Below are positions 26,610 to 58,513 of a stretch of DNA of 62,293 bases, in pieces (the first letter of the stretch is position 1; every line of letters begins with the position of its first letter). The notes beneath the pieces were generated by a model that ran no database searches, was not told the origin of the DNA, and saw only the letters and a list, made by a program, of their open reading frames with translations. The translations under genes were made by a program, and so were the position numbers. Source of the stretch: Nitrospirota bacterium (lineage in GTDB: Bacteria; NPL-UPA2; JAADIA01); contig JAADIA010000049.1 in NCBI GenBank assembly GCA_013151555.1, positions 1 through 62,293 on the forward strand. Direction: 5' to 3'.

Positions 26610-26632
26610 ATTATCTCTCTTCGGTACAAATA

Positions 26633-27513: not shown

Positions 27514-27624
27514 GGCACAGAGGCACTAAGGCACAGAGGCACAAAGTTGAAAAAACCTAAAAGAAACTGCAAGTATTGGCTCCTGTCTTTCCTTTGTGCC
27601 TTTGTCACTCTGTGCCTTTGTGCC
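27514..27624. repeat. Family C hairpin element, copy C2
   Basis: ggcacagaggcactaaggcacagaggcacaaag ... ctttgtgcctttgtcactctgtgcctttgtgcc. ataggcacagaggcactaaggcac (from 27511) is identical to C1 over 24 nt. Confidence 0.85.
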
Positions 27625-27635
27625 TTCTTTCTGCT

Positions 27636-36026: not shown

Positions 36027-36087
36027 GAAGCTGGAGGTAAGGCAAATCAAAAGAGGAGAATCGGGGCATGAGGGAATTAAAATCTTA

Positions 36088-36465
36088 GTGGTAGACGATG
36101 AGAAAGTTATCCGCAATCTTCTCACCGACGTGCTGAGCGATGAAGGATATGAGGTGACTGCAGTAGCAGATGGCCTCGAGGCTGTGGCCAGAGTGAAAGA
36201 AAAAGTTTTTGATATCGTCTTCTCGGATGTCCATATGCCGGGAATGGATGGGGTGGAGACCTTAAAAGCGATAAAGGAGATTAAGCCGGAGATAGTGATG
36301 ATAATAATGGATAGTTATCCTGATCAACTCCTGAAAGAGGCTCAGGAAACCGGGGTGTTTGCTTATTTCCATAAGCCTTTTAATATAAAAGATGTGGTAG
36401 CTGTGGTAGAGGAAATTCGCCTTCTAATCGGGGCCCCGAGAAACCCGAAGGAGTCCCGGAACTGA
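36088..36465 (+). CDS. Single-domain response regulator (CheY-like receiver)
   Basis: VVDDE...DIVFSDVHMPGMDG...KP. Start uncertain: the conserved KILVVDD begins upstream of GTG 36088 with no canonical start codon there. Confidence 0.8.
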   Translation: MVDDEKVIRNLLTDVLSDEGYEVTAVADGLEAVARVKEKVFDIVFSDVHMPGMDGVETLKAIKEIKPEIVMIIMDSYPDQLLKEAQETGVFAYFHKPFNIKDVVAVVEEIRLLIGAPRNPKESRN

Positions 36466-36482
36466 TAAAGGAGATAAAGAGC

Positions 36483-44702: not shown

Positions 44703-44771
44703 TGTTCACCCCTTTATTGTAGAAAAGAACCCTTGAACCCTACATAATTTTATCACTCTCCGGCCGTCCCG

Positions 44772-46175
44772 TCAATCCTTATCAAAATTAGGTAGTGGTA
44801 TTATCGCAGGAGGAACGGGTTGCCCGGAAAATGTCCGGTAGTTGAGGCTTTTCAGGTTGTGCCAGAGAACAGTAACAGCTACTATAAAGGTGAGCAGGCT
44901 GGAAACAGCATAACCTAATCCATAATAGGCGGGACCTAACTTCAGGGTGATGAGGGTGAAAAGGGTGTTTGTTACCAGGAATGTACCGGTGACGAGGAGA
45001 GCGGCCTTCCAGAACTCAAAATAGCAGAGGATAATGATGGTTATCAGAGCCATGATATGAAAAAAGGAACCAAACGTTCCAAGTCGGAAGATACCCAGTT
45101 GGAGGGGTGACCAACCGATGAGACGGAGTATCTTGGGAGCGAAAAGAATAGCCAGAATTGTTATCAGCCCCTGGATTCTCAGCAGGGTGCCGAAACTTTC
45201 CCGCAGGGAACTTTTTATTTCCTCTATCATCATTTCCAGCTCTTTCAAACCGGCTCTGTCCAGGATGGCATCATAATACCCCCGGAACTTTTCGTAGAAG
45301 CTGGTTTCTACTTTTAGCAGAAAGACTCCCAGGGTCGGGACAACGGTCAGATAGGCTAAGAACATGGCCGAATCGTAAGGATAATGGGTGCGAAAGAGAG
45401 ACCAGACGGCATATCCCTGGGGGGAGAACCATAAGATCCATTTATCTACCCAGATGGCTAAGCTGTAAAATAGACCGATAAAGACGAGTTGGGGGAAGAG
45501 TTTGAAATAACGGTAAAAATCCCAGAAGTTCGATTCCTGCCATCCCGTTTCCCGGAGCACCTGGTAAATTAAGACAAAGAGAATAGTCGCTTGGCCAAGG
45601 CTGAATCCGATAAGCCATCCTTCGAGACGGAAGTGCCGTCCCAGGATCATGGCCGTCCCGAGGCCGATGATGTTGCCTTCTAAAAAGGCAAAGGATATGG
45701 TCTTGTAATCCCTCAAAACACTAAGGAAAGACATTACCAGCCAGAGACAGCTCATGGTTACAAAAAGCCCGATGGCGGCTACTTTATACAAGGGGCTGAC
45801 ATTGCTGAAGAGGTAGAAAACGGTAGCCGAGACAAAGCTTATTCCTGCAGTAAGACAGATAGTGCCGGTAAGTGTTGTCCCCAGGGTGGGATCGCGCAGG
45901 TAGAAGCGGTCGGCAATGAACTTACTGATGAGCAATTGCAACATACCGTTTATGACCAGGGAGAAAATGAAAGTATAGACCATGGTAGCCCGGAAGAGAG
46001 CCAGTTCCGATTTGGAGAGTAAAGGGATGGAAAAGGTGGTTATGGCGGCGAGAGAGATGATGGAGAAAATCCAGGGACCGGCGGCAATGACGGCAGAGTA
46101 AAGGTGCGCGGTGATATCGGATAAGTATGTTTCCTCCTTCAGTAAATTCCTTAATCGAAACCCAATCCCGGCCAT
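44772..46175 (-). CDS. pelG: PelG-like polysaccharide exporter (12-TM)
   Basis: MAGIGFRLRNLLKEETYLSD...GPWIFSI matches the characteristic PelG N-terminus as I recall it. Polytopic membrane protein. Confidence 0.8.
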   Translation of the reverse strand: MAGIGFRLRNLLKEETYLSDITAHLYSAVIAAGPWIFSIISLAAITTFSIPLLSKSELALFRATMVYTFIFSLVINGMLQLLISKFIADRFYLRDPTLGTTLTGTICLTAGISFVSATVFYLFSNVSPLYKVAAIGLFVTMSCLWLVMSFLSVLRDYKTISFAFLEGNIIGLGTAMILGRHFRLEGWLIGFSLGQATILFVLIYQVLRETGWQESNFWDFYRYFKLFPQLVFIGLFYSLAIWVDKWILWFSPQGYAVWSLFRTHYPYDSAMFLAYLTVVPTLGVFLLKVETSFYEKFRGYYDAILDRAGLKELEMMIEEIKSSLRESFGTLLRIQGLITILAILFAPKILRLIGWSPLQLGIFRLGTFGSFFHIMALITIIILCYFEFWKAALLVTGTFLVTNTLFTLITLKLGPAYYGLGYAVSSLLTFIVAVTVLWHNLKSLNYRTFSGQPVPPAIIPLPNFDKD

Positions 46176-46185
46176 CTTATCTCCC

Positions 46186-46295
46186 CTTTCAACCTTAAAC
46201 TTTCGACTTTAAACTTAAAACATAGACTTTGGACCTACAGTACCGACCTTAGACTTAAGACCAGACAAATTTTTAGTCTTAGGTCTATAGTCTTA
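46186..46295. repeat. Family B-like heptamer array with hairpin, copy B7
   Basis: ctttcaa ccttaaa ctttcga ctttaaa cttaaaa ..., then gaccttagacttaagac / gtcttaggtctatagtc inverted arms. Confidence 0.8.
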
Positions 46296-46301
46296 TTTTC
46301 T

Positions 46302-48638
46302 TTACTGCATCAGCTCTTGGTAAAGCTTCGCATAACTTCGCACTACTTCTTCCTGCCGGTAGAAGCGGCTCACCCGTTGCCGACCGCTTTCCCCCATTTC
46401 CTGCCTTAACTTATCGTCAGAGAATATCTTTAAGACGGCTTCGGCCACTTCCTGAGGGTTGCCTATAGAAACGATTAAACCTGCTGCTCCTAATTCCTTA
46501 TCTTCTTTTTCTCTTCCCTGAAGGAGTTCGGCACAAGAACCTACATAAGTGGCTACCACGGGTATTCCTACACACATGGCTTCCATTACTGCCAGGGGTT
46601 GAGCCTCGCTGACGCTGGTTAAGACGAGAACGTCCAGTTTGGGATAATAGAGACGCAGGTCGATGTTGCCGGTAAATTGGATTTTTTCCTCTAATCCTAA
46701 GGACTGGGAGAGCATCCGGCATTCCTCTGCATATCCCGGATCTTCGTCCAATGGTCCCATAATGAGAAACTCTACCCGGGGAATTTTCTCGGCGATTAGC
46801 CTACAGGTCCGAATGAAAGTTTTAATGTCCTTGATAGGAACTACCCGACCGACTAACCCAACCCGGAAGATACCTTCTTTTTCCCTTTGCAGGGAAGAAA
46901 AAGTGTCCACCTGGATGCCGTTGGGAATAATCATCGTTTTATCCGGTTGGGCTCCCATCTCCAGTTGAAGTTTACGATTGTCCTCGTAGAGAGTAACTAT
47001 TCGTTCTGAATGCTCGTAGGTTAATTTGCTTAAAGTATTAAAGAATCCTATCCAGACATCTTTAAGGGAAGTGCCCAGGGGTTCTGCCCAGAGACTATCC
47101 GTCTCCCGGGTATATACCCAGGCAGCGTTGGCAATCTCGATTTTTCTCTCTTCATGGTATATGCCATGTTCCGTTAAAAGAAGCGGTTTCCCCGTTCTCT
47201 TATTAGCCAGGACTCCCAGGAGACCGGCATAGCCGGTAGAGAGGGTATGATAAGCCCTGGCTCGGGGGATGTCTGCCTTGAGTAACTGAAGCAGAGGGAG
47301 AACGATACTCCTGTAGGTCCAAAAAAAGTCAACGAAGGAGGTTTCTTCAGGCATCTTCTGCTCACAGGTCTTTACTAAAAAATCCCAAGCTTGAGGGGAA
47401 AAGAGGAAGGACTGGTCCAGGGATTTTCGACACTTGTCTTCATCAAGAGAATTGATTAATTTATCAAACCCGTCTAAGCTGTTTTTCTCCAGGTTGGTAA
47501 GGAATTCAGCAAGGACATCCCAGGTTTTCTCGTCTATTCTCTTCCCCTGCCGGGTCTCGACATTCTTCTCCTGAAGGTAAACCTCGGATAAGTGAATTAC
47601 ATTCTGAGGAAGAGCAAACTTAAACTCCCGCAAGGAATTTTCAAAGGGGGCTAAGTAAAGAAGAGAGAATCGGATATGGGGCAATCCTTTAATAAGGTTA
47701 CGCACCCAACTGGATACGCCGCCGGGGAAATAGGGATAGGTTCCTTCCAGGATTAAGCAAATATCTGCCTCGTCATCATCTCTTTGCTCTCCCATCCGTC
47801 TCAAGTAGTAATTTGCCAAAGAACGGATGTTCGAATTTTCATCTTTTGTCCAACGGGTTAGGGTCTTCTTTGCCAAATTCTTATCGCCTAAACTTGCCAA
47901 GGCTCTGATAATTTGACAACGCACTTCGTCTTCTTCTTCTTGTTCAAACCTTGCTGTTAACTTTTTCCCTATCTTCTTTGCCTGAAATTGGCCCAAAGCC
48001 CAGGCGGCTAACCTTCTTACCTGCGGGTGGGGGTCCTCAAGCAATGCGACTATCTCTCCGGTGGCTTCTTTTCCTCCTAAGTCCCCCAGGGTAAATATCG
48101 CCGTGCAGCGAACTCGAGGTTCAGGATCCCCGAGCAACTTTCTGACCGGTTTAATAGCTTTAACATCTCTTAGTAGCCTCAAAGCTTCCATGACTTTTAT
48201 CCGAACCTCGACATCCGGGTCCGAGAGCACCCGGATCAACGAGAGGACGGCATATACTTGCCCCTCGGCTCCCAGGGTCTCTGCTGCATAACATTTGCTG
48301 AAAGACCGGCCCCGCTCCAGTTCATCCAGGAGAAGGTCATATTTTTTATCGCTTTCTATGCGGTTGAGAGCCGTTGCTGCTTCGCCCCGCACCATTTCGT
48401 TCTTATCGTTCAAAAAGGAAATCAGCGGGAGGAGAACCGATTCCTTACCGAGATTCCCCATGAGACGACAAAAGTAAGCCCGGAGGAGAAAGGGTTCCGT
48501 TTTAATGAGCTCAGCTAAAGGAGGGATGTATTCCTCCTCCCGTATCTGAAGAAACTTTTCTACCGCTTGCTCTCGCTTGCGCCAGTCCGGGTCTTTCATC
48601 AGGCTGATAAGAGTCTTAATCTCCTCGCGTGGAGACAT
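46302..48638 (-). CDS. pelF: PelF-like GT4 glycosyltransferase (DUF3492 plus GT4) with a ~290-aa N-terminal HEAT-repeat domain
   Basis: Residues ~291 onward: DICLILEGTYPYFPGGVSSWVRNLI (DUF3492/PelF signature), then GT4 (SVSEAQPLAVMEAMCVGIPVV). Residues 1-290: about seven PBS-lyase-type HEAT repeats (DP..VR...A..AL). Confidence 0.8.
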   Translation of the reverse strand: MSPREEIKTLISLMKDPDWRKREQAVEKFLQIREEEYIPPLAELIKTEPFLLRAYFCRLMGNLGKESVLLPLISFLNDKNEMVRGEAATALNRIESDKKYDLLLDELERGRSFSKCYAAETLGAEGQVYAVLSLIRVLSDPDVEVRIKVMEALRLLRDVKAIKPVRKLLGDPEPRVRCTAIFTLGDLGGKEATGEIVALLEDPHPQVRRLAAWALGQFQAKKIGKKLTARFEQEEEDEVRCQIIRALASLGDKNLAKKTLTRWTKDENSNIRSLANYYLRRMGEQRDDDEADICLILEGTYPYFPGGVSSWVRNLIKGLPHIRFSLLYLAPFENSLREFKFALPQNVIHLSEVYLQEKNVETRQGKRIDEKTWDVLAEFLTNLEKNSLDGFDKLINSLDEDKCRKSLDQSFLFSPQAWDFLVKTCEQKMPEETSFVDFFWTYRSIVLPLLQLLKADIPRARAYHTLSTGYAGLLGVLANKRTGKPLLLTEHGIYHEERKIEIANAAWVYTRETDSLWAEPLGTSLKDVWIGFFNTLSKLTYEHSERIVTLYEDNRKLQLEMGAQPDKTMIIPNGIQVDTFSSLQREKEGIFRVGLVGRVVPIKDIKTFIRTCRLIAEKIPRVEFLIMGPLDEDPGYAEECRMLSQSLGLEEKIQFTGNIDLRLYYPKLDVLVLTSVSEAQPLAVMEAMCVGIPVVATYVGSCAELLQGREKEDKELGAAGLIVSIGNPQEVAEAVLKIFSDDKLRQEMGESGRQRVSRFYRQEEVVRSYAKLYQELMQ

Positions 48639-48663
48639 TTGGCAATTCTCCTTAAAAATAAGA

Positions 48664-48728
48664 CAGAATTAAGTAGTAAGTTATAAGGATTAAGTTTTTC
48701 TTAATACTTAATTCTTAATACTTAATCC
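48664..48728. repeat. Family E element, copy E3
   Basis: cagaattaagtagtaagttataaggattaag ttttt cttaatacttaattcttaatacttaatcc. Confidence 0.85.
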
Positions 48729-49755
48729 CATCCTTTGCGCCCGATTCCTCCGTCCAGAAACTGATGATATCCAGAAATCTGTCCGGATGGGGGTGTTTTT
48801 CCCGTATTCGGTTGCAGATAGACGGTATCTTTTCATATTCGCCGAATTCATAACAGCATTGAGCCATACCGAGCAGAGCCCGGAGATTATCCTCGTCATA
48901 GGAGAGAGCCTTTTCAAACCGTTCCCGGGCTTCAAGGAAATTCTGCTTTATAATAGAGATGCGGCCCAGGTTGTTATAGACCTCGGCCTGCTCGGCTTCT
49001 AAGGTTAGAGATTCCAGATATTCGGTTTCGGCTAAGTCAAGGTAGGTTTTTTTTGCCTGGGTATCAAGCAATCCCGACTCACAGTATTCCAGGGCAATAT
49101 TAGCCAGGATCCGGTGCGCTTCACTACTCTCGGGATGGGCGGAGGATTCCTTTTGCGCCTGGAATATATTGGTGGTAAACTCCTCATGTCCTTCCGATAT
49201 GTGAGAAGCAGCTTCGGACCGGACTACCGCGTAGGAATCTTTAGCCAGGCTGTGCAATCTTTCCAGGGACGACTTATCTCCTAACTTGCCTAATATGCGG
49301 GCAGCTCCCGCTCTCCGGCTCGCGTCTTTGTCGCTGAGCCCCTGGACTGCCGGTTCGATCTCGGTTCCCTGACGGACAAATTCGGGAAGGTTGACTATTT
49401 TCCCCGGAAGTTTTTTCCTTCTACCGGAGCAACTCATATACTTTTTATATTCGTCACACAGGTCACTGACTGCTTCCGGGTCAAGCTTATTTCTTAAAAA
49501 GAAAAGGAGCAGTACCCCAAGCAATCCCCCTACCGGAATGGTCAGGGTGAGAGAGGTTCCCAGCAAGATCCAGTTTCGATAGCCACTCTCCTTCTTCAGG
49601 GTTTGCATCAGTCCCAGGGTTACACTGGCCGAAGCAAAAAGGTGGAGAAGGATAACCAGAGAAATCCCGGAGTTGGATAACCCCTCCTTGATGAGAAGAC
49701 TTACCGCCAGGCCCTCTAAAACCAGGCTGGCGAGAAGAAAAAAACTTCCTAACAT
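48715..49755 (-). CDS. PelE-like membrane protein (N-terminal TM helices, HEAT-like and TPR repeats)
   Basis: Lies between the PelD-like and PelF-like genes. TM helices followed by helical repeats. Assignment rests mainly on synteny and architecture. Confidence 0.55.
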   Translation of the reverse strand: MLGSFFLLASLVLEGLAVSLLIKEGLSNSGISLVILLHLFASASVTLGLMQTLKKESGYRNWILLGTSLTLTIPVGGLLGVLLLFFLRNKLDPEAVSDLCDEYKKYMSCSGRRKKLPGKIVNLPEFVRQGTEIEPAVQGLSDKDASRRAGAARILGKLGDKSSLERLHSLAKDSYAVVRSEAASHISEGHEEFTTNIFQAQKESSAHPESSEAHRILANIALEYCESGLLDTQAKKTYLDLAETEYLESLTLEAEQAEVYNNLGRISIIKQNFLEARERFEKALSYDEDNLRALLGMAQCCYEFGEYEKIPSICNRIREKHPHPDRFLDIISFWTEESGAKDGIKY

Positions 49756-51134
49756 TTTGCCTCACTTCTCGTACCCTTTTTCATGTTCTCCCGGGCCTGT
49801 CTGAATAGGTCCTCAACGCTCTTCATCTGAGGATTAAAGGTTGCCCGGCCGGTAGAGAAACGGAGTCTTTTTTCGTCATGGTAAGGTTTAAGTTCAAAAC
49901 CGTTGATGCTTTTAATCAATCGTTCTTCTACCCTCTTTGCCCCCTCCTCATCTGTAAAAGGCAGAATCATAAGGAATCCGTCCTCATTGCCATCCCGGCC
50001 GATGATATCCGTCGTCCTCAGGGCCAGGGAGAAAGCAGATCCCAGGACGCCCAGGAGAGTAGCTTTCATCTCCCCGGAGGCAAGAAGAGCATAATCTTCT
50101 ATCCGAATAAGCATGGTCGAGAAGACCGTTTTGTAACGAAGGGCTTTCTTGAATTCTTCCTCCAAGCGATTTCTCACATATTTAGCGTTGTACACTTTGG
50201 CCACCTCATCGTCTATCCGGTTAGCTTCCGCTTTCCCGTAACGGGTCGCGTTTTCTATAGCCCGGTAAGCCCAGTCGGCTACCACGGAAAGCATTCTCAC
50301 GGAAGCCTGGTTAAATTTGACAAAGGGAAGATAGTCAATATTAATGACTCCCATAACCTTCCCGGAAACCGATTTCAGGGGAGCACACATTATCCTGCCC
50401 TTATCTTTCCCCTCTTCCTTTGCTGCCTCCCACCCTGAATCACGGATAGTTATCGTCTTTCCCCAACTGGCTACTTTCCCCATAACTCCCTCGGTAATGC
50501 CTACTCGCTGAGGAGGGAGGCTGTCCGCCGGGTACCCGAGATTGGCTTTCAACCAGAAGTTCTCCCCCTCGCGAAGATAAAGGGAAATCTTTTCGGCTCC
50601 AATATATTCTTTCACCACCCGGGGGATAGTAGGGAGAAGCTCCTTTAACTCTAAATTTCCCAGACTTTGGGCGGTTTCATAGAGGGTGATTACCGTTGAG
50701 GTCTGACTCAAGACTTTCTTCTCTAATTCCTTCCGCAGATTATCCAGGGCAGTATAACGGGAGTGAACAGATTCTAACTCTTCTTCCTGGCGCTGGACCC
50801 TATCCCGCCATTCCCGAAGTTTCTTTTCCAGGTTATCTCTCAGACTGCCCAGAAAGAAACTGATGATGAGGAAGGAAGCTACCATAGGTAACCTTTCCGA
50901 TAGAAAGGCCTTTTCCTCTCCGGGAAGAACCAGATAAATCGCCCCTACGAGGAGTGAGGAGAGCATTCCCCAGTTAGCTCCATAGCGAGCGCTGGTGAAG
51001 ATGATAACCAGCCAGAGGGGATTGGGGTTAAACTTATAAAAGCCGAGGTCATCTCGGAACCAGAGGAGATTGATAGTCATCAGTAACCCGATGAAACCCA
51101 GAATCTCCAGGATAATATATTTCTTCTTTGACAT
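49749..51134 (-). CDS. PelD-like c-di-GMP receptor (4 TM, coiled coil, GAF, degenerate GGDEF)
   Basis: Four N-terminal helices, a GAF-like region, then LRTTDIIGRDGNEDGFLMILP: an RxxD I-site-like motif upstream of a degenerate GGDEF position. Start set at MSKKKY (51134). Confidence 0.7.
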   Translation of the reverse strand: MSKKKYIILEILGFIGLLMTINLLWFRDDLGFYKFNPNPLWLVIIFTSARYGANWGMLSSLLVGAIYLVLPGEEKAFLSERLPMVASFLIISFFLGSLRDNLEKKLREWRDRVQRQEEELESVHSRYTALDNLRKELEKKVLSQTSTVITLYETAQSLGNLELKELLPTIPRVVKEYIGAEKISLYLREGENFWLKANLGYPADSLPPQRVGITEGVMGKVASWGKTITIRDSGWEAAKEEGKDKGRIMCAPLKSVSGKVMGVINIDYLPFVKFNQASVRMLSVVADWAYRAIENATRYGKAEANRIDDEVAKVYNAKYVRNRLEEEFKKALRYKTVFSTMLIRIEDYALLASGEMKATLLGVLGSAFSLALRTTDIIGRDGNEDGFLMILPFTDEEGAKRVEERLIKSINGFELKPYHDEKRLRFSTGRATFNPQMKSVEDLFRQARENMKKGTRSEAKC

Positions 51135-51180
51135 AGCTCCACCACTTAGGTCGCCTCCGGCGGCAACAGATATAAAGAAA

Positions 51181-51236
51181 GGCACAGAGGCCCAAAGTTA
51201 AAAAAACTACAAAAACTACAAATAACTGCAAGGTGC
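51181..51236. repeat. Family C half-element, copy C3
   Basis: ggcacagaggcccaaagttaaaaaaac...aactgcaagg parallels the left half and loop of C2. Confidence 0.65.
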
Positions 51237-51237
51237 T

Positions 51238-52230
51238 TTATCTAAATAAAATTCTATCCAGTGCTACCGTTCCTACATAAGGGATAAAACCATAACTTGA
51301 CGAGGAACGGTAAGCATACTTTATCAGGGACCTATCCGTGGGTCCTGCATAGTCAATAGTGAATATGGGCAATTTGTATTTCTTTCTAATAGAGAGCAGC
51401 TCCCGGATTAGAGGCTCCCGGACAGAACGAGCTGTCTTTTTATAAAAATTCTCTTCATGGTCGTAGTGGGAGAAAAGGTCTTCCACTGCTAAGGCATCGA
51501 GGGAAGAAGATATCTTCTCGATTATAAAGTTGGCATTAGCGGCAATTAATATTTCTCCCGGGAAAGTTTTCCTTATCTCTTTTATCAAAGTGACCATGCC
51601 GGGTTCCATCTCCGGAAAATTATAGGGGCCGGCCGTGTCCACGGTATCCAGGTAGAGACCGTCGAAGCCTTTCTCGAGGATGGCCGGGATAACCGTGTTC
51701 AGCAAGAGACGATGCCAGCCGGGCTGATTGACATCTACATAGAAATTGCCCGGCCAGTTCGGGTTCTCTTTCCTTATCCATTCCGGGTTTACCCGGGAGA
51801 AGAACCAACGGTAATTTTCAGCTTCTCCCACGCTCAGATAACCGATTACTATCTTACCTCTGGCTTTCAAAGCAAGGACATCTTTTGCTGTGTATGCATC
51901 AGGGTCAATCATTATAAGGTCGAATTTGGAGAGTTGTTTCAGGTGCCCGGTTCCTCCAAAGTAGACGACGAGGTTCTTCACTTCTCTTAACTGTAGGGGC
52001 GAGGAACGAACCATAGATGAGGTCATTCCACAACCTGTAAGTACAAGACTGATGAATGAAATGCCGCAAAATAGCCATCCTTGCTTAGGCCTTGCAATTC
52101 GAGAATTGCCGGTACTTAATCCCGGAAATCCTTCGGGTTTCCGGGATCCCCGATTGAATAATCCGGGTAACCTGCCTTTAAAAATTTGTGTAATCAAAAG
52201 TAGAGTACCCATCCTACCTGCACCTTCCAT
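51238..52230 (-). CDS. GH114/TM1410-type (PelA-hydrolase-like) glycoside hydrolase, probable lipoprotein
   Basis: LVLTGC lipobox. VIGYLSVGEAE and KGFDGLYLDTVDT motifs typical of the endo-alpha-1,4-polygalactosaminidase-like TIM barrel. Start uncertain (52230 or 52212). Confidence 0.7.
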   Translation of the reverse strand: MEGAGRMGTLLLITQIFKGRLPGLFNRGSRKPEGFPGLSTGNSRIARPKQGWLFCGISFISLVLTGCGMTSSMVRSSPLQLREVKNLVVYFGGTGHLKQLSKFDLIMIDPDAYTAKDVLALKARGKIVIGYLSVGEAENYRWFFSRVNPEWIRKENPNWPGNFYVDVNQPGWHRLLLNTVIPAILEKGFDGLYLDTVDTAGPYNFPEMEPGMVTLIKEIRKTFPGEILIAANANFIIEKISSSLDALAVEDLFSHYDHEENFYKKTARSVREPLIRELLSIRKKYKLPIFTIDYAGPTDRSLIKYAYRSSSSYGFIPYVGTVALDRILFR

Positions 52231-53816
52231 TCCTTAAACCGGGTTTCTAAATTTCCGGTCAGGGTATCCGTGCGGGAATAATCGGCAAACAATCCCCAAC
52301 CCTGACGGTAACGATAATTGAGCCTGAGCCTCAGTCCATTAAGCAGGGCCCGGTCTGAGACTGCCCAGGCCAGGGTCTCATGAAAGAGGTAAGAGAACTT
52401 CTTTTTCCGTTTGTCGCTCAAGATGAAAAGAAGGGAGTGGACCTCGTAATTCTCAGGATTCCAGTAAGGATAAGTTTTGGAAGAAGTGTCCTGATGACGA
52501 AAAGAATCGCGGTTATAGGTATAAGCTAAATCAATAAGAGGTCCCCCTTTTTTGAGATGACGGATCAAGCCCAGTTCGGTTTCCCATTCATTATTGCTAT
52601 CGGAATAAGAACCGTATTTCAACCGCGAGGAGAGACTCCAGAGGGGCTTAAGATTGTAGTAAAGGGATACCTCCAGGAAAGTAGCTTCAATGCCTTTATC
52701 TATTGCAGCAAGCTCGGAAACTATATCCTCATAGGAGACGGTGCCCTCCAGGGAAAGGGGAACCTTAAGAAAGTTCTTCTTCATGGTCAGGGAACCGTTG
52801 AGATGCGTTTCTCCCCGCGAATAATCGTTGACTGTTATTTTCTCCGACAAGGTCAGGTAATTAAGAAAGTAGTTGGTTGCTTCCAATTGGTAAGAGTCGG
52901 CATCTATGCTTCTCCCGGATTGACTATATTCAGGCCGGGAGTAAGAAAAAGTATAATCAAGGTAGTCGCTTAGATATTGACCGTAACCCCAGGAAAAATA
53001 AGAATGAGTGTAATCATCTCCCCGGTTGTGATAATAATATTGAGCCTGCAATCTCGATTTTCTTTTCTCCCTTATCTCCTCCAGGCGCCTTTGGCTCTTG
53101 GGACTCTTCCCCTTTAAGAGGGAGTTTTGGTAATATTTTTCTGCTGTGGTATAGAGGCGGAAATCATAATAGATGTCCGCGAGCTTTTGGTTGATTTCCG
53201 GGTTGTCCGGCTCGGCTTTTAACACCAAGCGATATTGCCGGACCGCTTCCAGGGTCCTTCCATTCCATAGATAGAGGTCGGCTAATATCTTCCGGGAGCC
53301 AATATCCCCGGCATCCTGCTTGAGGATTTCCTCATACTGAAGGATAGCTTTCTGCTGGCGCCCTCCCTCAACGTATTTCTGGGCTAAAGCCCGGCGGAGC
53401 TCTAAATCTGAAGGATTCAGAGTTACCAAAGCTTCATATTTTTTCAGGAGCTTTTCGGGCATCTTCCCCCAACCATAGAGGAGAAGAAGCTGGCGGTTAG
53501 CTTCCCGGTTATTTGGGGAAAGCTTTAAGACCCTTTCATACAGAATCCGGGCTGAATCTTCCTTGTCTCTCTCCAGATATATCCCTGCCAGAGTTAAAGA
53601 TGCCTGGATATCCCGGGGATGCGCTTCCACATATTTTTCTATTCTCTCCAGAGCGTTTTCCAGTCCTTCCTGGTATTGAGTCAGAGCCTCTTCGAAAGCG
53701 AAACGGTTCATTTCCCCCTCGTAGATATTATCGGCTCTCCCTGACTCCACCAAGCCAAGCAGGGTTAAACAGATAATAAGAATTGTTGTTCTTAGCAATA
53801 ATTTCACCTTGAGCAT
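52194..53816 (-). CDS. TPR-repeat plus C-terminal beta-barrel outer-membrane protein (compact PelB/PgaA-like)
   Basis: Signal peptide, about 5 TPRs, then alternating aromatic-rich strands ending ...VQVGWVLYF (terminal Phe as in OMPs). Confidence 0.6.
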   Translation of the reverse strand: MLKVKLLLRTTILIICLTLLGLVESGRADNIYEGEMNRFAFEEALTQYQEGLENALERIEKYVEAHPRDIQASLTLAGIYLERDKEDSARILYERVLKLSPNNREANRQLLLLYGWGKMPEKLLKKYEALVTLNPSDLELRRALAQKYVEGGRQQKAILQYEEILKQDAGDIGSRKILADLYLWNGRTLEAVRQYRLVLKAEPDNPEINQKLADIYYDFRLYTTAEKYYQNSLLKGKSPKSQRRLEEIREKRKSRLQAQYYYHNRGDDYTHSYFSWGYGQYLSDYLDYTFSYSRPEYSQSGRSIDADSYQLEATNYFLNYLTLSEKITVNDYSRGETHLNGSLTMKKNFLKVPLSLEGTVSYEDIVSELAAIDKGIEATFLEVSLYYNLKPLWSLSSRLKYGSYSDSNNEWETELGLIRHLKKGGPLIDLAYTYNRDSFRHQDTSSKTYPYWNPENYEVHSLLFILSDKRKKKFSYLFHETLAWAVSDRALLNGLRLRLNYRYRQGWGLFADYSRTDTLTGNLETRFKEWKVQVGWVLYF

Positions 53817-56414
53817 CTAATTCGAGTCCGCCTTCTTTAAATAAATAATCGCCCGGGACGAGTGCGTTTCCAATATATAGTATTCCTGCCCCGGATATTT
53901 GTAGATTATCTTGCCGTTCACCACTTCCCGAACTGTCTTTCCATTATTAATTCTCATCACGAAGAAGTTAGGCTTCTTCGAACCGCTGGGGAACTCCGCC
54001 TCTATCTTTTCCTCGCTTAACCGGTAACGGGCCGGGGTCTCGCCATAGCGAAGAAATTCATAGTAAGCATCCCGGGCAGACATATTGCGCAGCCAGGGAT
54101 AATTGCCCCGCACGAAGGAGAAAAGTTCGTTAATTGCTTCCTTCAATTCCGGCCAGCTTTTTCCCTGGGACCTTTCTTCGTTATAAACATCGTCAGGATG
54201 AAAGAAATGGGTCCAGACACCAAAAGAACCAATCCCGTTAAGCATCTCCTTCATCATATCCGGCGTGCGGACATAGCCGAAACTCATGCGGGGGATATTA
54301 AAAAAATTATCATTCCAGGGATCCATAGTGAATTCTTTACCCGTTTCCTCTTCATCGGCATTATATATAGTAGAGACTACCTTAATGCTGGGGAAGACCT
54401 CGTGAAGAGCCTTTTCCCCCTCCGGGCTGATGGCATCGCTCGGAGCTACATAGGTAAATGGGGGATAAGGGAAATCTTTTTCCCATTCCTCTTTACCGGA
54501 TTTTAAAGCCAGAACCATGTTCTCTTCCGTTCGCCAGCCTTTGCTTATTACAAAAGGGGTGCTCAGAAGCAGGGACTGGTGATTATAACCATGCAGACCC
54601 ATCTCGAAACCTGCCTTGATGATGACTTGCCCCAGCCGTTGAGAAGAGGAATCCTTACCGTTATGAAACTGGGAGTTATCATAAGGCGGGTTAACTTTAC
54701 CGTTGTAGTTGAAAGCAACTGCAGCAGTATAGTTAATCCCGTATTTTCGGGAGAGAGCCAGGGTCTCCGGCCACCATTCCTTTAGATAGAAATCCGTATC
54801 GGTAAGGTTTCCTTTCCCCTTTATAGGCTTAATGACTTTATTCCACATCGACAGGGGGGTATCATCAAGGAAAATTACTTCCACGTTAGCCAGGGAGGCG
54901 ACGCCTGCCGGCTGAACCATCAGGATGGACTGGACAATAAACCCGCGGTAGGATTTTTCCCACAAAGAGTCTACGTTCCAGAACAAGGTTTTTCCCCGTC
55001 CGTATCCGTATTCCCAGAAGAGAGGTAATCCCCGGGGGTATCCTTCCATCTTTTCCGAGGAGACGGCCAGGAGATTTACTCCTTTATCCAGAACCAGGCT
55101 CAGGCTGGTGTTCTCTGTCTCTTCCCCGGAAAGGTCCAGTCCCTCGGTACCGGGGAAGAAAGGCCGGATGAATTTAAGCCCGGGAACCTGCCGGGGGTAT
55201 TCCCCCCGATATTCCTTTATCCCGAATATTTCCGCCAGGCTCTCGCTATATCCTTCGTAGAGGACGATTATACTTCCCCCTTTCCGAACATATCGTTTAA
55301 GACCGGGCACCGTTGCCTCGCTTTCTTCCATCTTCCAAATTCTGTTCAAAGCCAGGATAAGGCTGCTGTAACCCTTCATATCGAGGAATAAAAGATCCTT
55401 TACCTTCTTCAGCTCCAGAGTTTCGTATTCTATCTTAGCATAGTCTAAAGCCCAGCCAATATTATTTAAATACCGGCGGCTCAGGTCATCCTCCTTGTCC
55501 CAGATTATTAGGACCTTTTGTCTAAGCCTCTTCCCGGGTTTACCCCAGAGGGATTCCTCAAAGAATCTGAGGAAATTAAGACGCATCTGTACCTGGAAAG
55601 TATCCGGGTTTACATAGTAGATATAATTAGAAAGAGCCATTCCCCCATAAGGAGTGCTGACTACCAGAGGACTTGCCGAATCGGGAATATCCGTTCGTCG
55701 GACGACCAGATACTCTTCATTATCCGGGAGAAGAGACTCGAAAAGAAAGTAATGTTTGGTCTCCTTCAGAGAAAGAGGATGTTTATACTCGACCATATCG
55801 GAATCTTTATATTCCACCTGGAGAACCCGGGGATTGGAGGTCCAGGTAGCCATATAAACCAGCCCTAAGGCATTAAAAGCTATGTTGACCTCGTCCAGTC
55901 TCAGCCATTTTCCGGTGGAGGCTTCCTGAAAAGCGCCAAAATTGCCCAGGATGATAACCCGGCGTCCGGCTTTAATCTGCCGGGATAACCACTGCCCGTA
56001 TTCGCGGGCTCCCTTCATCTTAGAGTCCCGATACCAGCTTATTATCCCCCGGTATTTCTGCATCATCTTTTTCCCGGGCAAACCCCGGTTTATATCGTAA
56101 TAATCTACTCCTAACCCCAGGGTTTCCAGGGCCTGCTCGGCGAAGTTGAGGATATCGTTGTTCTTTGCGGAAGTTCCCTCCGTCCCGTCATAGAGTCCTA
56201 AGATGCGAGCCGGATTGCTCCTCCGTTTCCGGAGTTTCGGAAGGAGCTCTTCTGTGGTTTCCGGAGGTAGTGATCCTTCGGTCTGGGAAGGAACCTGAAG
56301 TTCTTTCGGGGAAACCGGGAGAGAAACTTTCCGGGGGGAAGAATACCGCCAGGCAAAGATTAAAAAGGAGGTAAGAAAAAGGAAAATAATTATCTGCCCT
56401 ATGTTTTTTTTCAT
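53817..56414 (-). CDS. Large anchored or exported DUF2194-like protein with CE4-like deacetylase motifs
   Basis: N-terminal TM anchor. C-terminal half has VIFLDDTP (Asp-Asp) and GLHGYNHQ (H-x3-H), consistent with a NodB-like metal site. The TAG stop abuts the next ATG. Confidence 0.5.
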   Translation of the reverse strand: MKKNIGQIIIFLFLTSFLIFAWRYSSPRKVSLPVSPKELQVPSQTEGSLPPETTEELLPKLRKRRSNPARILGLYDGTEGTSAKNNDILNFAEQALETLGLGVDYYDINRGLPGKKMMQKYRGIISWYRDSKMKGAREYGQWLSRQIKAGRRVIILGNFGAFQEASTGKWLRLDEVNIAFNALGLVYMATWTSNPRVLQVEYKDSDMVEYKHPLSLKETKHYFLFESLLPDNEEYLVVRRTDIPDSASPLVVSTPYGGMALSNYIYYVNPDTFQVQMRLNFLRFFEESLWGKPGKRLRQKVLIIWDKEDDLSRRYLNNIGWALDYAKIEYETLELKKVKDLLFLDMKGYSSLILALNRIWKMEESEATVPGLKRYVRKGGSIIVLYEGYSESLAEIFGIKEYRGEYPRQVPGLKFIRPFFPGTEGLDLSGEETENTSLSLVLDKGVNLLAVSSEKMEGYPRGLPLFWEYGYGRGKTLFWNVDSLWEKSYRGFIVQSILMVQPAGVASLANVEVIFLDDTPLSMWNKVIKPIKGKGNLTDTDFYLKEWWPETLALSRKYGINYTAAVAFNYNGKVNPPYDNSQFHNGKDSSSQRLGQVIIKAGFEMGLHGYNHQSLLLSTPFVISKGWRTEENMVLALKSGKEEWEKDFPYPPFTYVAPSDAISPEGEKALHEVFPSIKVVSTIYNADEEETGKEFTMDPWNDNFFNIPRMSFGYVRTPDMMKEMLNGIGSFGVWTHFFHPDDVYNEERSQGKSWPELKEAINELFSFVRGNYPWLRNMSARDAYYEFLRYGETPARYRLSEEKIEAEFPSGSKKPNFFVMRINNGKTVREVVNGKIIYKYPGQEYYILETHSSRAIIYLKKADSN

Positions 56415-56431
56415 TTTAGACTTTCTGCCAG

Positions 56432-58513
56432 TTACAAAATCTTATAGATAAAGACTCCGTTGCGGGAAAAGATTAACTTCAGATATTCCCCGGAGAAGAA
56501 AAAACGCAAGAATCTTTTTCGGGCTTTCTCATCAGCCCAGTTGAAAGAGTCATAATCCCGGCTAACTCTTTTGACCTCGGAAGCATTATAAAGGATATAG
56601 GTAATTCCCATATCTTTCAACTTATTTTTTATCTCTTCACCATTACGGGAAGAGTTTACTATCCCTACAATGATATTGTCATCGAGAGGACTGTTGGCTA
56701 CAAAGTCGCGGTCGAGGTAGTATCCCTGGTTCTCCCCGATGAGGAGAAGCTTGGCTGAAGAAGGCAACTTCTCATTGGCGAAGCGAAAGGCATCGTAAGC
56801 ATAGAAGGTACGAGAGAGAAACGCTTCTTGGGATTCCCGGTTGAGCGCTACTTTCAGGAGGCCGTATTCCGGGACCATACCCATAACCGTTGCTAAATTC
56901 AAGAGGAACACCAGCGCCAGACCGGACACAAGCAGAGGGGAGAGAGATCTCCTCTTTGCACAGTTGATTACTATAAAGACGATAAAAGTACTGAGTCCCA
57001 GGGCTAAGGGGATAAGGAAGAGACCCTCCCGGAACTTGAGGAGTTGTAAACCAAAGAGGTGAAATCTTTGATAATCTAAGGCCAGGGCAAATCCCAGTCC
57101 GGCTGTCAGGAGCAGGGAATAACCCTTCCCCGTTCCAAAACGTTTCATTAGGTAAGCGACTACTAAACTGATGGCGGGGAAGGCCGGCAGGAGAAACCGG
57201 TAGTCACGTTGGGTGAAAAAAGCCCACAACAAAAAATATACTCCTCCGTAAATAAGAAGCAGTTTGATCGGCTTTGCAAATTGCTTAAAGAAGACTAACA
57301 AGGGAACAAAAATAATAAAGAGCGGACCAATATCCTTGCTTTTGCTGATAGCTAAAGGCACGGTGAAGATTCCCCACCAATGGGGGAAAGGAGCAGAATG
57401 CTGGGCCATAAACCTTGCGGCATTGAAGGCGTTCCAGCCTCTTCCTCCCAGGAAGTTATAGAATAAAGGATAGATAGGATTACCGGTATAAATAAAATTC
57501 TTGATAAGCCAGGGAGAAACTGTTCCTATCGCCACGAGGGAAAAGATAAGTGCTTTCTTTAAGCTGACCGGCCAGCGGACCTTATCTATCAAGCTCGTCT
57601 TGAGGATAATTCCCAGAAGGAGGGGAAGGAAGGAGAAGAGGATGGCCGGGTACTTTGTTCCCATAGCCAGACCGGTGAAGATAGCGGAAATTAGGAAATC
57701 TTCTCTCTTCCGGGAATAAAACCAGTTGACAAATCCCAGGAGAGCTAAGGAGGTATAAAGGGCTGCCCCTAAATCAATATAAGCCGTGGTGGACAGGAAT
57801 CCCGTTAGCGGAATGTTGAAGAAAATGGCTGAGGCCAGAAGCGCTATCCGGGAGTTGAAGTAACGCCGGCCAAAGATATAAATAGTGGCAACCGTGAGGA
57901 GGCCGAAGGAGAGATGAACCAGTTTCGCCAGGATACCGCCCTTGAGGAGGAGGCTTAAAAGATAAAGCATTTCCAGGGTGAAAGGGAAATTGGAATAGAC
58001 TTGATGAGGAAGATAAACGATTTTATGATAGCGGATATATTCTTTGGGAACCCCTAAATGATAAGAGAGCGTGTCGTAGTTGAGGGGAGGAGTAAGAGCG
58101 CCAATGAGAACCGTTACCAGAGTGGTAGCAAGCAGCAGCCAGAGACTAAAAAAGAAGAGGCGGTTAATCTTTGTTGAATCCAGACAAGCCGGCTTGCCGG
58201 TCTCCAACGAGCCTGTTTGCCTGCCGGAACCGGTCAAGCGCTTCCCGATAGCTCCGATGAACGCCTTTATCTCAGGAAGTACGATTAGGGTTAGAAGAGC
58301 AAGCAGCCCATAAGCTACCCCTCGATAAAGCAGCCTGCCGACCCCCAGACCCAGTACTAAATAGGCTAAGGCTCCCCATCCCAGGGATAAAGAGAAAACA
58401 ATCTCTTCCAGGAAAGAGTTGAACCCTACCCCCAGGAGTCTCCAGATCTTTCTTCCCAGTCCGTAGCCAACCAATCCCATGAAGAGTAACAGGACTATTT
58501 GAGTAAGCTTCAA
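56432..58513 (-). CDS. GT-C-fold membrane glycosyltransferase-like protein (GT39/GT83-like)
   Basis: More than 12 TM helices, first loop PPLNYDTLSYHL, soluble C-terminal domain. TTG start. Confidence 0.5.
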   Translation of the reverse strand: MKLTQIVLLLFMGLVGYGLGRKIWRLLGVGFNSFLEEIVFSLSLGWGALAYLVLGLGVGRLLYRGVAYGLLALLTLIVLPEIKAFIGAIGKRLTGSGRQTGSLETGKPACLDSTKINRLFFFSLWLLLATTLVTVLIGALTPPLNYDTLSYHLGVPKEYIRYHKIVYLPHQVYSNFPFTLEMLYLLSLLLKGGILAKLVHLSFGLLTVATIYIFGRRYFNSRIALLASAIFFNIPLTGFLSTTAYIDLGAALYTSLALLGFVNWFYSRKREDFLISAIFTGLAMGTKYPAILFSFLPLLLGIILKTSLIDKVRWPVSLKKALIFSLVAIGTVSPWLIKNFIYTGNPIYPLFYNFLGGRGWNAFNAARFMAQHSAPFPHWWGIFTVPLAISKSKDIGPLFIIFVPLLVFFKQFAKPIKLLLIYGGVYFLLWAFFTQRDYRFLLPAFPAISLVVAYLMKRFGTGKGYSLLLTAGLGFALALDYQRFHLFGLQLLKFREGLFLIPLALGLSTFIVFIVINCAKRRSLSPLLVSGLALVFLLNLATVMGMVPEYGLLKVALNRESQEAFLSRTFYAYDAFRFANEKLPSSAKLLLIGENQGYYLDRDFVANSPLDDNIIVGIVNSSRNGEEIKNKLKDMGITYILYNASEVKRVSRDYDSFNWADEKARKRFLRFFFSGEYLKLIFSRNGVFIYKIL

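Follow-up and report, generated by a model that had tools for sequence, protein, structure and literature searches.

Within the 62,293-nt window (the whole stretch of DNA analyzed), eight co-directional genes occupy positions 44772-58513 of the minus strand, where the initial annotation had placed them. In transcription order, they are:

56432-58513, minus strand: GT-C neighbor gene, 693 aa
53817-56414, minus strand: pelA_DA-long, deacetylase, 865 aa
52194-53816, minus strand: gene 3, PelB-like TPR export protein, 540 aa
51238-52230, minus strand: gene 4, pelA_H hydrolase, 330 aa as ORF
49749-51185, minus strand: gene 5, pelD, 478 aa as ORF
48715-49755, minus strand: gene 6, pelE-like, 346 aa
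46302-48638, minus strand: gene 7, HEAT-pelF, 778 aa
44772-46175, minus strand: gene 8, pelG, 467 aa

The ORFs are closely packed, neighbors overlapping by up to 37 nt or standing at most 126 nt apart. The next gene, vorB, lies 69 nt beyond pelG and has its own promoter-like site. Profile searches reproduced the domain calls of the initial annotation: every proposed family was detected, with scores far beyond chance. The uncultured host is a diderm, as had been proposed, because elsewhere the window carries genes for LpxK, a lipid A acyltransferase, and a heptosyltransferase.

Family matches and domain architecture identify the last four genes as pelD-E-F-G. PelG matched the Pfam PelG family over its full length (432.7 bits, E = 2.3e-129, model positions 1-452 of 452), carries the previously quoted signature MAGIGFRLRNLL…GPW at its N-terminus, and has about 12-13 hydrophobic segments; it is assigned as a polytopic exporter of the inner membrane, with about 12 TM segments. 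PelF, called earlier as a DUF3492-GT4 protein, matched both families (GT4 being of the GT-B type) and scored 496 bits with the NCBIfam PelF equivalog (cutoff 100) over residues 292-773, so that the two scores together uphold the reading of a Pel-type locus. It retains the EX7E motif EAQPLAVME, and the signature LEGTYPYFPGGVSSW is found at residue 297. Its N-terminal ~290 aa, overlooked in the initial annotation, form a HEAT-repeat domain (HEAT_2, E = 5e-41, five repeats), a rare extension covered by 7 of 243 homologs.

Gene 6 combines three N-terminal TM segments (residues 4-22, 31-49, and 69-87) with HEAT_2 (134-184) and TPRs (246-322), matching its earlier description; the HEAT/TPR part is assigned as a cytoplasmic scaffold. 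A protein at the PelE position is conserved in five other pel loci, and the window protein resembles those encoded between pelD and pelF in the metagenomic loci L004, L007, L008, and L021 (E = 6e-8 to 3e-19). The 4TM-GAF-degenerate-GGDEF call for gene 5 was matched by Pfam GAF_3 (E = 4.7e-9) and GGDEF (E = 1.6e-12) profiles; translation likely starts at the ATG at 51134. The I-site R390-T-T-D393 is intact, and GNEDGF stands in place of GGEEF at the A-site. The PelD homologs from L007 and L008 also keep the RxxD motif, and the window protein is 22-30% identical to its counterparts at the pelD position in five other pel loci. When the protein was compared with the PDB, active cyclases outscored PelD structures in the GGDEF domain, and PelD structures matched weakly, in the GAF region (E = 0.008). 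By its sequence, PelD has the hallmarks of a c-di-GMP receptor built on a catalytically dead GGDEF domain, in keeping with the c-di-GMP control suggested earlier.

Separate genes encode the two functions of PelA, a split that the initial annotation had recognized. The deacetylase, described there as DUF2194/CE4-like, does match Pfam DUF2194 (349.6 bits), but the generic CE4 label gives way to the experimentally characterized Gram-positive PelA_DA type (CBM114 plus CE26, Protein Data Bank [PDB] 9ZAU): residues 302-828 align to Bacillus cereus PelA_DA with E = 1.6e-56, and all eight catalytic residues, whose roles are known from that enzyme (PMC13254593), are conserved. D517/D518 and H608/H612 correspond to B. 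cereus D262/D263 and H350/H354, and the MT3 proline, R709, H739, and D742 to P405, R458, H488, and D491. A single hydrophobic segment (residues 4-22) forms the N-terminal membrane anchor, followed by a Pro/Ser/Glu-rich linker, a mixed alpha/beta domain (~64-292), and the CBM114-CE26 de-N-acetylase body with a beta-sandwich (~300-830). The extra N-terminal domain of ~230 aa had been overlooked. Its profile matches only PelA (9cgy, chain 259-344 and 421-457, E = 6.3e-8), and by this match, it is homologous to Gram-negative PelA's "mixed alpha/beta" domain, which is predicted to contact the TPRs of PelB (PMC12022489). In L021, this domain stands ahead of a CE21 deacetylase of the PelA type, beside a TPR protein; in PelA-like proteins such as P0318, it comes after GH114.

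The second half of the split, pelA_H, matched Pfam Glyco_hydro_114 (82 bits, E = 4.4e-23), and the PDB entries closest to it are hydrolase domains of PelA (9cgy, E = 4.5e-16; 5tcb, 3.7e-15). D195 and E250 align with D160 and E218 of Pseudomonas aeruginosa PelA, for which catalytic roles have been described (PMC12022489). The GH114 part of the earlier GH114-like lipoprotein call therefore stands; the lipoprotein part is backed by an LTGC lipobox conserved in the L020 homolog, whose signal peptide has normal length, and is qualified by an uncertain start codon, the true start probably lying downstream of 52230. From these features, we predict a GH114/GH166-like lipoprotein of the endo-alpha-1,4-N-acetylgalactosaminidase type.

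Gene 3 had been called a TPR plus beta-barrel protein. Its signal peptide is followed by about five TPR motifs (~45-235; TPR families down to E = 1e-13, AlphaFold pLDDT 78-91) and a C-terminal domain spanning 256-540. The TPR half of the call is sound; the barrel half found no PDB match and no significant Pfam match, and its four full-length homologs all fall within this lineage. This region is Tyr- and Ser-rich and 17.5% aromatic, lacks a TM helix, contains ~18 alternating segments, and has QVGWVLYF as its conserved terminus. The beta-signal of outer-membrane proteins (OMPs) follows the pattern zeta-x-G-x-x-Phi-x-Omega, which QVGWVLYF fits. The pLDDT of the C-terminal half was below 40 in both AlphaFold models; modeled alone (AF2), the domain gave a 14-strand meander with a pLDDT of 38, and a Foldseek search with it returned outer-membrane barrels at nearly all top ranks, none significant. 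Low model confidence, the missing family match, and a weak amphipathic-beta signal (z = 1.2-1.8) would suit a TPR scaffold, periplasmic or membrane-associated, whose C-terminal domain is not a barrel; export would then rely on a porin gene outside the locus, or the polymer would remain in the periplasm or bound to the cell. We regard this as unlikely given the signal peptide, the composition, the 14-18 alternating strands, the invariant C-terminal motif, and the nature of the Foldseek hits. The L021 TPR protein, with the same operon position and layout, moreover ends in FTAGVKVKF, a classic OMP C-terminus, and diderm synthase-dependent systems generally pair TPRs with a porin (PMC7890745). The C-terminal half is probably, if not demonstrably, an outer-membrane beta-barrel, and gene 3 in all likelihood encodes the outer-membrane exporter. 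In line with the initial annotation, this short TPR protein sits at the PelB position and the locus has no PelC; a pelC gene could lie elsewhere in the genome.

The seven genes from the deacetylase gene to pelG probably form a machine for a Pel-like, partially de-N-acetylated alpha-1,4-GalNAc polymer in this LPS-containing diderm, the sugar and the extent of deacetylation being extrapolated from P. aeruginosa and from B. cereus. Machinery of the Pel family could also make a chemically different polymer, with another HexNAc backbone or linkage and perhaps not cationic, so that "Pel" would name the machine and not the product. PelF is just 37-46% identical to named PelF proteins and the hydrolase shares about 25-30% identity with the hydrolase domains of PelA, the window yielded no UDP-GalNAc 4-epimerase gene, and an operon survey warned that divergent pel operons may not yield identical polymers (PMC7112194). 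Yet both modification enzymes retain the full catalytic sets of enzymes proven on alpha-1,4-GalNAc, PelF exceeds the equivalog threshold almost fivefold, and B. cereus makes a Pel-like polymer with comparably divergent proteins (PMC7112168); a different product is unlikely.

The GT-C-like membrane protein was correctly named (PMT_2, 36.7 bits against a cutoff of 26.1; homologs are named GT39 or ArnT family), but its proposed addition to the locus is not supported. Independent metagenomes contain the same locus: L006 at 97-99% identity and L009/L019, L018, and L020 at 71-83%, all of which are cassette-occupied sites. Two related lineages with the same flanks, L017 and L010, are cassette-empty: rhomboid, GT-C (68% and 64% identical to the window gene, respectively), and vorB are adjacent without pel genes. 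A seven-gene cassette is present or absent between the GT-C gene and vorB in related lineages. The distant same-architecture loci with HEAT-PelF (L021, L007, and L008) lack any GT-C, and more distant GT-C homologs (36-37% identity) have unrelated surroundings without pel linkage. A co-transcribed eighth component that acts in the periplasm, adding a sugar or glycosylating the polymer or a Pel protein, is the least likely of the alternatives: the gene is co-directional with the deacetylase gene across a gap of just 17 nt (in the window and L006), lies directly upstream of the cassette in four of four occupied relatives, and has a sigma-70-like site upstream (58577-58549), but it persists beside vorB without pel genes, the gap varies (50 nt in L018; 107 nt with hairpins in L009), and promoter-like sites also occur within its 3′ end, ahead of the deacetylase gene. 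The GT-C gene is very probably a resident neighbor outside the Pel system, and the evidence from relatives therefore sets the unit at seven genes, 44772-56414. Of the view that the first four genes replace pelA-B-C, the split PelA and the short TPR protein survive, whereas the GT-C gene does not. We assign the seven genes, on their predicted products, with high confidence to a synthase-dependent Pel-type exopolysaccharide cassette.

These parts suggest how the machine may work. Binding of c-di-GMP to PelD would activate HEAT-PelF, which would polymerize UDP-GalNAc, and PelG, with PelD and PelE, would carry the chain across the inner membrane. The deacetylase would sit beside PelG through its N-terminal helix, as modeled for B. 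cereus PelA_DA, and reach the short TPR protein through its extra domain, the homolog of the PelB-docking domain of PelA; contacting both, it would therefore bridge synthase and exporter. Such a bridge would compensate for a PelB-like protein that has ~5 TPRs where PelB has 19, and also for the absence of PelC. The outer-membrane pore would come from the C-terminal half of gene 3, and the lipoprotein hydrolase would trim or release the polymer. Docking on the TPRs and anchoring on PelG are proposed by analogy to AlphaFold models in the literature, and we offer the bridging and docking mechanism tentatively, at rather less than even confidence.

The Pel system, which makes a biofilm polysaccharide, is itself already known, and this locus is a variant of it that mixes Gram-positive-type and Gram-negative-type parts in a combination not yet described. 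Gram-positive bacteria are already known to split PelA in this way: B. cereus ATCC 10987 has a pelDEA_DAFG operon and a separate pelA_H (Whitfield et al. 2020, PMC7112168; Subramanian et al. 2026, PMC13254593). Both systems have a TM-anchored CBM114-CE26 deacetylase, a separate GH114/GH166-like hydrolase, a pelD-E-F-G core, and a PelD with an RxxD I-site on a degenerate GGDEF domain. They differ in gene order (A_DA–TPR protein–A_H–D–E–F–G in the window, D–E–A_DA–F–G in B. cereus), and unlike its B. cereus counterpart, the window locus belongs to an LPS diderm and includes a TPR/putative-porin gene, a Gram-negative-PelA-type mixed alpha/beta domain of ~230 aa on the deacetylase, a HEAT-repeat N-terminus on PelF, and a hydrolase that is a predicted lipoprotein.

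With the canonical Gram-negative system, pelABCDEFG of P. aeruginosa (PMC12022489), the locus shares the pelD-E-F-G core in the same order, periplasmic deacetylase and hydrolase activities (predicted for the window), an export protein with TPRs whose gene lies upstream of pelD, PelA's mixed alpha/beta domain, and the c-di-GMP receptor logic. The PelA functions do not reside in one bifunctional protein, however; the esterase is CE26 instead of CE21 and is anchored in the inner membrane, whereas that of P. aeruginosa is soluble. The PelB-like protein has 540 aa and ~5 TPRs against 1193 aa and 19 TPRs, with a putative barrel of no detectable similarity to that of PelB; PelC is absent from the locus, and PelF carries the HEAT extension.

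L021 (JGI 3300076002, contig Ga0645779_06480) is an uncharacterized, distant metagenomic relative whose PelF is just 39% identical to that of the window. The L021 deacetylase carries 3-4 mixed alpha/beta domains in tandem and, in place of CBM114-CE26, a CE21 module of the PelA type (E = 7.5e-65 to 9cgy); a receiver-domain gene precedes pelD there, and part of the HEAT region is a separate 113-aa gene. L021 nevertheless matches the seven-gene cassette in lacking PelC and GT-C, in coding GH114 hydrolase separately (as more than one gene), and in its order: a deacetylase with mixed alpha/beta domains, a TPR protein with an OMP-like C-terminus, and then pelD, pelE (HEAT plus TPR), HEAT-pelF, and pelG.

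Eight open reading frames were found on the minus strand between positions 58513 and 44772, an arrangement far beyond chance, and their domain families matched those assigned in the initial annotation. In order of transcription they are as follows.

56432-58513, minus strand: gene 1, 693 aa, PMT_2 (GT-C), 36.7 bits
53817-56414, minus strand: gene 2 (deacetylase), 865 aa, DUF2194 (349.6 bits) and DUF2334
52194-53816, minus strand: gene 3 (TPR protein, putative porin), 540 aa, many TPR families, at residues ~45-230 only
51238-52230, minus strand: gene 4 (hydrolase), 330 aa, Glyco_hydro_114, E = 4.4e-23
49749-51185, minus strand: gene 5 (pelD), 478 aa, GAF and GGDEF
48715-49755, minus strand: gene 6 (pelE-like), 346 aa, HEAT_2 and TPR
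46302-48638, minus strand: gene 7 (pelF), 778 aa, DUF3492 (E = 7.8e-84), GT4, NCBIfam PelF equivalog, HEAT repeats
44772-46175, minus strand: gene 8 (pelG), 467 aa, PelG, E = 2.3e-129, full length

Spacing between neighboring genes is at most 126 nt, and at the other extreme two genes overlap by 37 nt. Profile searches for the PelF, PelG, Glyco_hydro_114 and DUF2194 families all returned matches, and the original identification of the locus as Pel-type was right, given a PelF equivalog match of 496 bits and a full-length PelG. The upstream neighbors are a rhomboid protease gene in divergent orientation, an MBL hydrolase and enolase; a 2-oxoacid:ferredoxin oxidoreductase operon (vorB and others) follows downstream on the same strand.

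The synthase core is encoded by genes 5 to 8. The PelF match (NCBIfam NF038011, 496.1 bits against a cutoff of 100) spans residues 292-773 of gene 7 and the full 489 model positions, and the EX7E motif is present. HEAT repeats occupy residues ~1-290 (HEAT_2, E = 5e-41); this N-terminal extension is rare, being covered by 7 of 243 PelF homologs, and we found no mention of a HEAT-PelF fusion in the literature searched. Residues 1-449 of PelG align with positions 1-452 of the 452-position Pfam model PF16933, and the protein has about 12 hydrophobic segments. Gene 5 combines short N-terminal TM segments with GAF and GGDEF domains. Its A-site is degenerate, GNEDGF replacing GGEEF, and five residues before it stands an intact I-site, R390-T-T-D393. 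The RxxD motif, which binds c-di-GMP on PelD of Pseudomonas aeruginosa (R367/D370) and Bacillus cereus (R363/D366) (PMC7112168), is also conserved in the distant PelD homologs of two other loci, L007 and L008. The equivalent of the third c-di-GMP contact arginine (R402/R395) is uncertain in gene 5, which resembles the crystal structures of PelD only weakly in sequence (E = 0.008). The combination of TM segments, GAF, degenerate GGDEF and RxxD points to a PelD-type receptor predicted to bind c-di-GMP. Gene 6 lies between pelD and pelF, and its product starts with three TM segments, after which come HEAT_2 and TPRs. It did not match the curated PelE models, and it resembles the same-position proteins of four other pel loci (L004, L007, L008 and L021; E = 6e-8 to 3e-19); its architecture, conserved position and likeness to these equivalents mark it as a predicted PelE. 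Judged by its sequence, the locus belongs with those that carry a Pel core.

The two enzymatic activities of PelA appear to be divided between separate genes, as the initial annotation had proposed, with the hydrolase in gene 4 and the deacetylase in gene 2. The best PDB matches of gene 4 are the hydrolase domains of PelA (9cgy, E = 4.5e-16; 5tcb, 3.7e-15). In the alignment, its D195 and E250 fall on the catalytic D160 and E218 of PaPelA (PMC12022489). Gene 4 is predicted to be a GH166-GH114 alpha-1,4-N-acetylgalactosaminidase, a TIM-barrel hydrolase that keeps both the Asp and the Glu needed for catalysis. The first ~40 codons of the window ORF are doubtful; the assignment as a lipoprotein holds because the LTGC lipobox is conserved in the homolog of the 71%-identity lineage, which has a normal signal peptide. 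Gene 2 begins with a single hydrophobic helix (residues 4-22), a feature it shares with the Bacillus enzyme, and a Pro/Ser/Glu-rich linker. Its residues 302-828 align with 9ZAU (E = 1.6e-56), the B. cereus PelA_DA, founding member of the CBM114-CE26 enzymes, which de-N-acetylates alpha-1,4-GalNAc (PMC13254593). The alignment preserves the catalytic and metal-binding residues D517/D518, H608/H612, the MT3 proline, R709, H739 and D742. The CE21 region of 9cgy was not matched by the gene 2 esterase, which matched CE26 instead. With an N-terminal TM helix, CBM114 and CE26 carrying the full catalytic residue set, gene 2 is a predicted PelA_DA. Across genes 2 to 8, all catalytic and ligand-binding motifs of a putative c-di-GMP-gated Pel synthase, de-N-acetylase and hydrolase are intact.

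Gene 2 also contains an additional domain, at residues ~64-292, that had been overlooked. A profile built from 14 diverse members of this domain family was searched against the whole PDB, and the sole match was PelA (9cgy, E = 6.3e-8), at chain residues 259-344 and 421-457. In PelA this region is the mixed alpha/beta domain which, together with the deacetylase domain, is predicted to contact the TPRs of PelB (PMC12022489). Gene 2 is therefore a mosaic of a Gram-negative PelA adaptor and a Gram-positive-type anchor, carbohydrate-binding module and esterase. We considered whether the domain is an internal copy of the gene 2 CBM114 and rejected this (BLASTP E = 0.69; the N-domain HMM gave no second match). 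An exhaustive HMMER search recovered 666 representative proteins or clusters with the domain, 340 of them at E ≤ 1e-10; members inspected include P0266-P0415. It occurs in one to five tandem copies, with arrays of up to five in proteins of 1200-1750 aa. It follows GH114 in PelA-sized proteins (P0318, P0325), follows TPRs in P0352, and is fused to CE21 esterases as well as to a CE26-type body as in gene 2 (19 of the 150 top representatives). These results mark out the mixed alpha/beta domain as a separable module, which no Pfam model covers. In the literature searched we found no description of a CE26 PelA_DA in a diderm, nor of one fused to the PelA adaptor domain.

Gene 3 lies directly downstream of the deacetylase. 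Its N-terminal part consists of a signal peptide and about five TPR motifs, modeled at a pLDDT of 78-91. The C-terminal 285 residues are a sequence orphan, with only four full-length homologs (71-98% identity); a profile of this domain gave no match in the PDB even at E ≤ 10, and in Pfam only OMP_b-brl at a nonsignificant E = 0.36. This half has no TM helix, is rich in aromatic residues (17.5%) and Ser (10.5%), and shows about 18 alternating segments, with amphipathicity z-scores of only 1.2-1.8. It ends in an invariant QVGWVLYF, which we take to fit the beta-signal pattern of outer-membrane proteins. AlphaFold was run on the whole protein with a 5-sequence alignment and on the C-terminal domain with a 4-sequence alignment, and the C-terminal half had a pLDDT below 40 in both models. 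The domain-only model, at a low-confidence pLDDT of 38, is a 14-strand meander; in a Foldseek search its top ranks were nearly all outer-membrane barrels, none of them significant (best E = 0.013), and the modeling is taken as a weak hint. Independent support for a barrel comes from the distant metagenomic pel locus L021 (JGI 3300076002, Ga0645779_06480), whose same-position protein likewise combines a signal peptide with TPRs and, in its C-terminal half, a beta pattern that runs to a terminal FTAGVKVKF. No similarity was detectable between the C-terminal halves of the two proteins. The C-terminal half of gene 3 is probably an outer-membrane barrel. Compared with PelB, which has 19 TPRs and a porin, gene 3 has ~5 TPRs, an OMP-like composition and a beta-signal-like end, with low-confidence models.

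Independently of gene 3, LPS genes encoded in the same window mark the host as an LPS diderm. A large LPS/lipid A cluster occupies 12677-29513 on the minus strand, with several GT4 and GT2 genes, a DUF374 protein, an MsbA-like ABC transporter and the following genes.

25446-26711, minus strand: LpxK
23205-24164, minus strand: lipid A acyltransferase
24122-25195, minus strand: GT9 heptosyltransferase
15968-17599, minus strand: GT2 fused to a Kdo/WaaP-type kinase domain
19544-20326 and 21568-22329, minus strand: two CE4 polysaccharide deacetylases

The host also encodes 2-oxoacid:ferredoxin oxidoreductases, and the window contains no rRNA. A gene set for assimilatory sulfate reduction and cysteine synthesis is found at 595-8642 on the plus strand, comprising PAPS reductase, ATP sulfurylase, a sulfite reductase-like 4Fe-4S protein, PALP enzymes and a class-V aminotransferase. 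Positions 34095-38036, also on the plus strand, encode a sensor histidine kinase (sCache-HAMP-PAS-HisKA-HATPase) and, after it, a response regulator whose C-terminal half resembles a family of c-di-GMP phosphodiesterases (NCBIfam NosR family, 297 bits, below the 400 cutoff). Some 7 kb separate the two genes from pelG; they might feed into the c-di-GMP control of PelD, a link drawn from proximity only. In L021 (6852-7235) and in L007, an Eremiobacterota MAG locus (7159-7542), a stand-alone response-regulator receiver gene is located immediately upstream of pelD, which suggests that a phosphorelay feeds into these two systems; a gene of this kind is absent from the window.

The initial annotation had counted the GT-C gene as an enzyme added to the Pel system. 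Close homologs of gene 1 were traced to their contigs, and the gene next in line was recorded, with the following outcome (percentages are GT-C identities).

Window and L006: 100 and 97%; then the seven pel genes and, after them, vorB
L009 (with L019, same sample): 76%; then a gene 2 homolog, same flanks
L018: 75%; then a gene 2 homolog, same flanks
L017: 68%; then vorB-vorA-vorC directly, rhomboid upstream
L010: 64%; then vorB directly, 83% identical to that of the window

The claim fails because two related lineages (L017 and L010) keep GT-C and vorB with no pel genes between them and because the gene is absent from three distant HEAT-PelF pel loci (L007, L008 and L021). GT-C homologs at 36-37% identity stand in unrelated contexts. 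The GT-C gene is a neighbor, not a Pel component, and the functional unit is the seven genes at 44772-56414. As a block, these are either there or missing between GT-C and vorB, both of which are conserved. From this presence/absence polymorphism at a fixed chromosomal site, the seven genes are seen to act together as a single accessory unit. The upstream GAF-GGDEF genes of L010 were considered as relocated pelD and pelE and rejected, as they have an active GGEEF, 23-25% identity and no PelE similarity.

In a tree of the GT-C proteins, the two lineages with an empty site group as sisters (99% bootstrap), while those that carry the cassette make up the other clade (79%); one gain and one loss of the cassette are equally parsimonious. 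The cassette was also searched for traces of recent horizontal transfer. Its GC3 is 0.536 against 0.529 for the flanks, and in tetranucleotide distance it exceeds the background of the window by about 2 SD, which gives no clear compositional anomaly; neither junction repeats nor an integrase were found. At the downstream boundary (44747-44775), a promoter-like site stands just upstream of vorB; it has a TG-extended -10 (TAAAAT), and its -35-like hexamer, TTGACG, shares bases with the stop codon of pelG. This arrangement is conserved in the 81%-identity relative (L019, ~5020-5060), so vorB seems to have retained a promoter of its own where the cassette ends. At the upstream junction, the gap between GT-C and deacetylase is 17 nt in the window and 107 nt in L009 (5442-5550), where it carries two GC-rich hairpins, CCGCCTAAGGCGG and CCCGCCTGAGGCGGG, which could be a terminator or a REP-like insertion. 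L018 and L006 both come from JGI sample 3300003886; two related cassette-bearing organisms thus co-occur in one metagenome.

Scans of genomes and metagenomes for further related loci returned only distant short-form or core-only examples (L001-L005 and L014-L016). One of these, on a 159-kb contig (L016, 1238-11482), brings together a GH114 gene, a DUF2194 gene of the short form and two GT4 genes that are PelF-like at 24-26% identity, and may be another pel-like or related GalNAc-polymer cluster.

Pel is among the most widespread biofilm matrix polysaccharides, and the machinery described so far comprises a Gram-negative PelABC periplasmic and outer-membrane module and a Gram-positive membrane-anchored PelA_DA. 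A mechanism for the window locus can be proposed in which c-di-GMP would bind PelD, and HEAT-PelF, held on a PelD/PelE/PelG complex by HEAT and TPR contacts, would polymerize UDP-GalNAc. PelG would export the chain, which the deacetylase, anchored beside PelG as modeled for B. cereus PelA_DA (PMC13254593), would partially deacetylate; the predicted product is an alpha-1,4-GalNAc polymer that is in part de-N-acetylated. The deacetylase's mixed alpha/beta domain would then hand the chain to the TPRs of gene 3 for export through its barrel, and the lipoprotein hydrolase would trim or release the polymer. How the inner-membrane complex is linked to PelA, PelB and PelC in Gram-negatives is unclear according to the PelA_DA paper (PMC13254593). 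If true, a bridging model of this kind would bear on the coupling of modification with export. The main value of the locus lies in the adaptor-domain finding and the compact export module. As a compact system the locus also lends itself to structural work; annotation pipelines would label only PelF and PelG in it.

A matching layout occurs in L021, whose PelF is 39% identical to that of the window. There the deacetylase gene is followed by a TPR protein with an OMP-like end, the receiver gene, pelD, pelE (HEAT and TPR), a small HEAT protein, HEAT-pelF, pelG and two separate GH114 genes. The two loci share the adaptor domain, a short TPR protein with a putative barrel, a split hydrolase, HEAT-PelF and the lack of PelC; they differ in the esterase module, which is CE21 in L021 and CBM114-CE26 in the window. 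It is possible, if somewhat doubtful, that together they represent an undescribed diderm Pel class in which a minimal TPR-barrel protein and an adaptor-bearing deacetylase would replace the long PelB and PelC. In that case the window deacetylase, which would also be anchored in the inner membrane, would connect PelG physically with the pore in the outer membrane. The adaptor would serve as a docking module that can move between proteins, having been attached to CE21 and CBM114-CE26 esterases independently, and on the cytoplasmic side HEAT-PelF and HEAT-PelE would provide a scaffold to match.

For non-proteobacterial phyla, the literature already notes that PelA can be split, PelB variable and the pel operon rearranged (PMC7112194; PMC7890745). 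The canonical pelABCDEFG operon encodes a single bifunctional PelA (GH166, mixed alpha/beta, CE21 and beta-rich domains), whereas the window divides these functions between separate genes and shares only the mixed alpha/beta domain; no ORF for a PelC-type small lipoprotein was found between or beside the seven genes (gaps of at most 126 nt) at the locus in the 62-kb window. With PelC and a long PelB both missing, and without a PelA that is a bifunctional CE21 protein, the locus is not of the canonical Gram-negative type. The Gram-positive pelDEA_DAFG operon belongs to monoderms, has no outer-membrane component and follows the order D-E-A_DA-F-G. The window has a diderm host, a TPR/putative porin gene for export and a deacetylase gene upstream of pelD; on these three counts (host envelope, export protein and gene order) its locus is not of the Gram-positive type. 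It combines elements of both types instead, joining a CE26 Gram-positive-type deacetylase to a Gram-negative PelB-docking domain beside a very short TPR/putative porin, PelC being absent from the locus.
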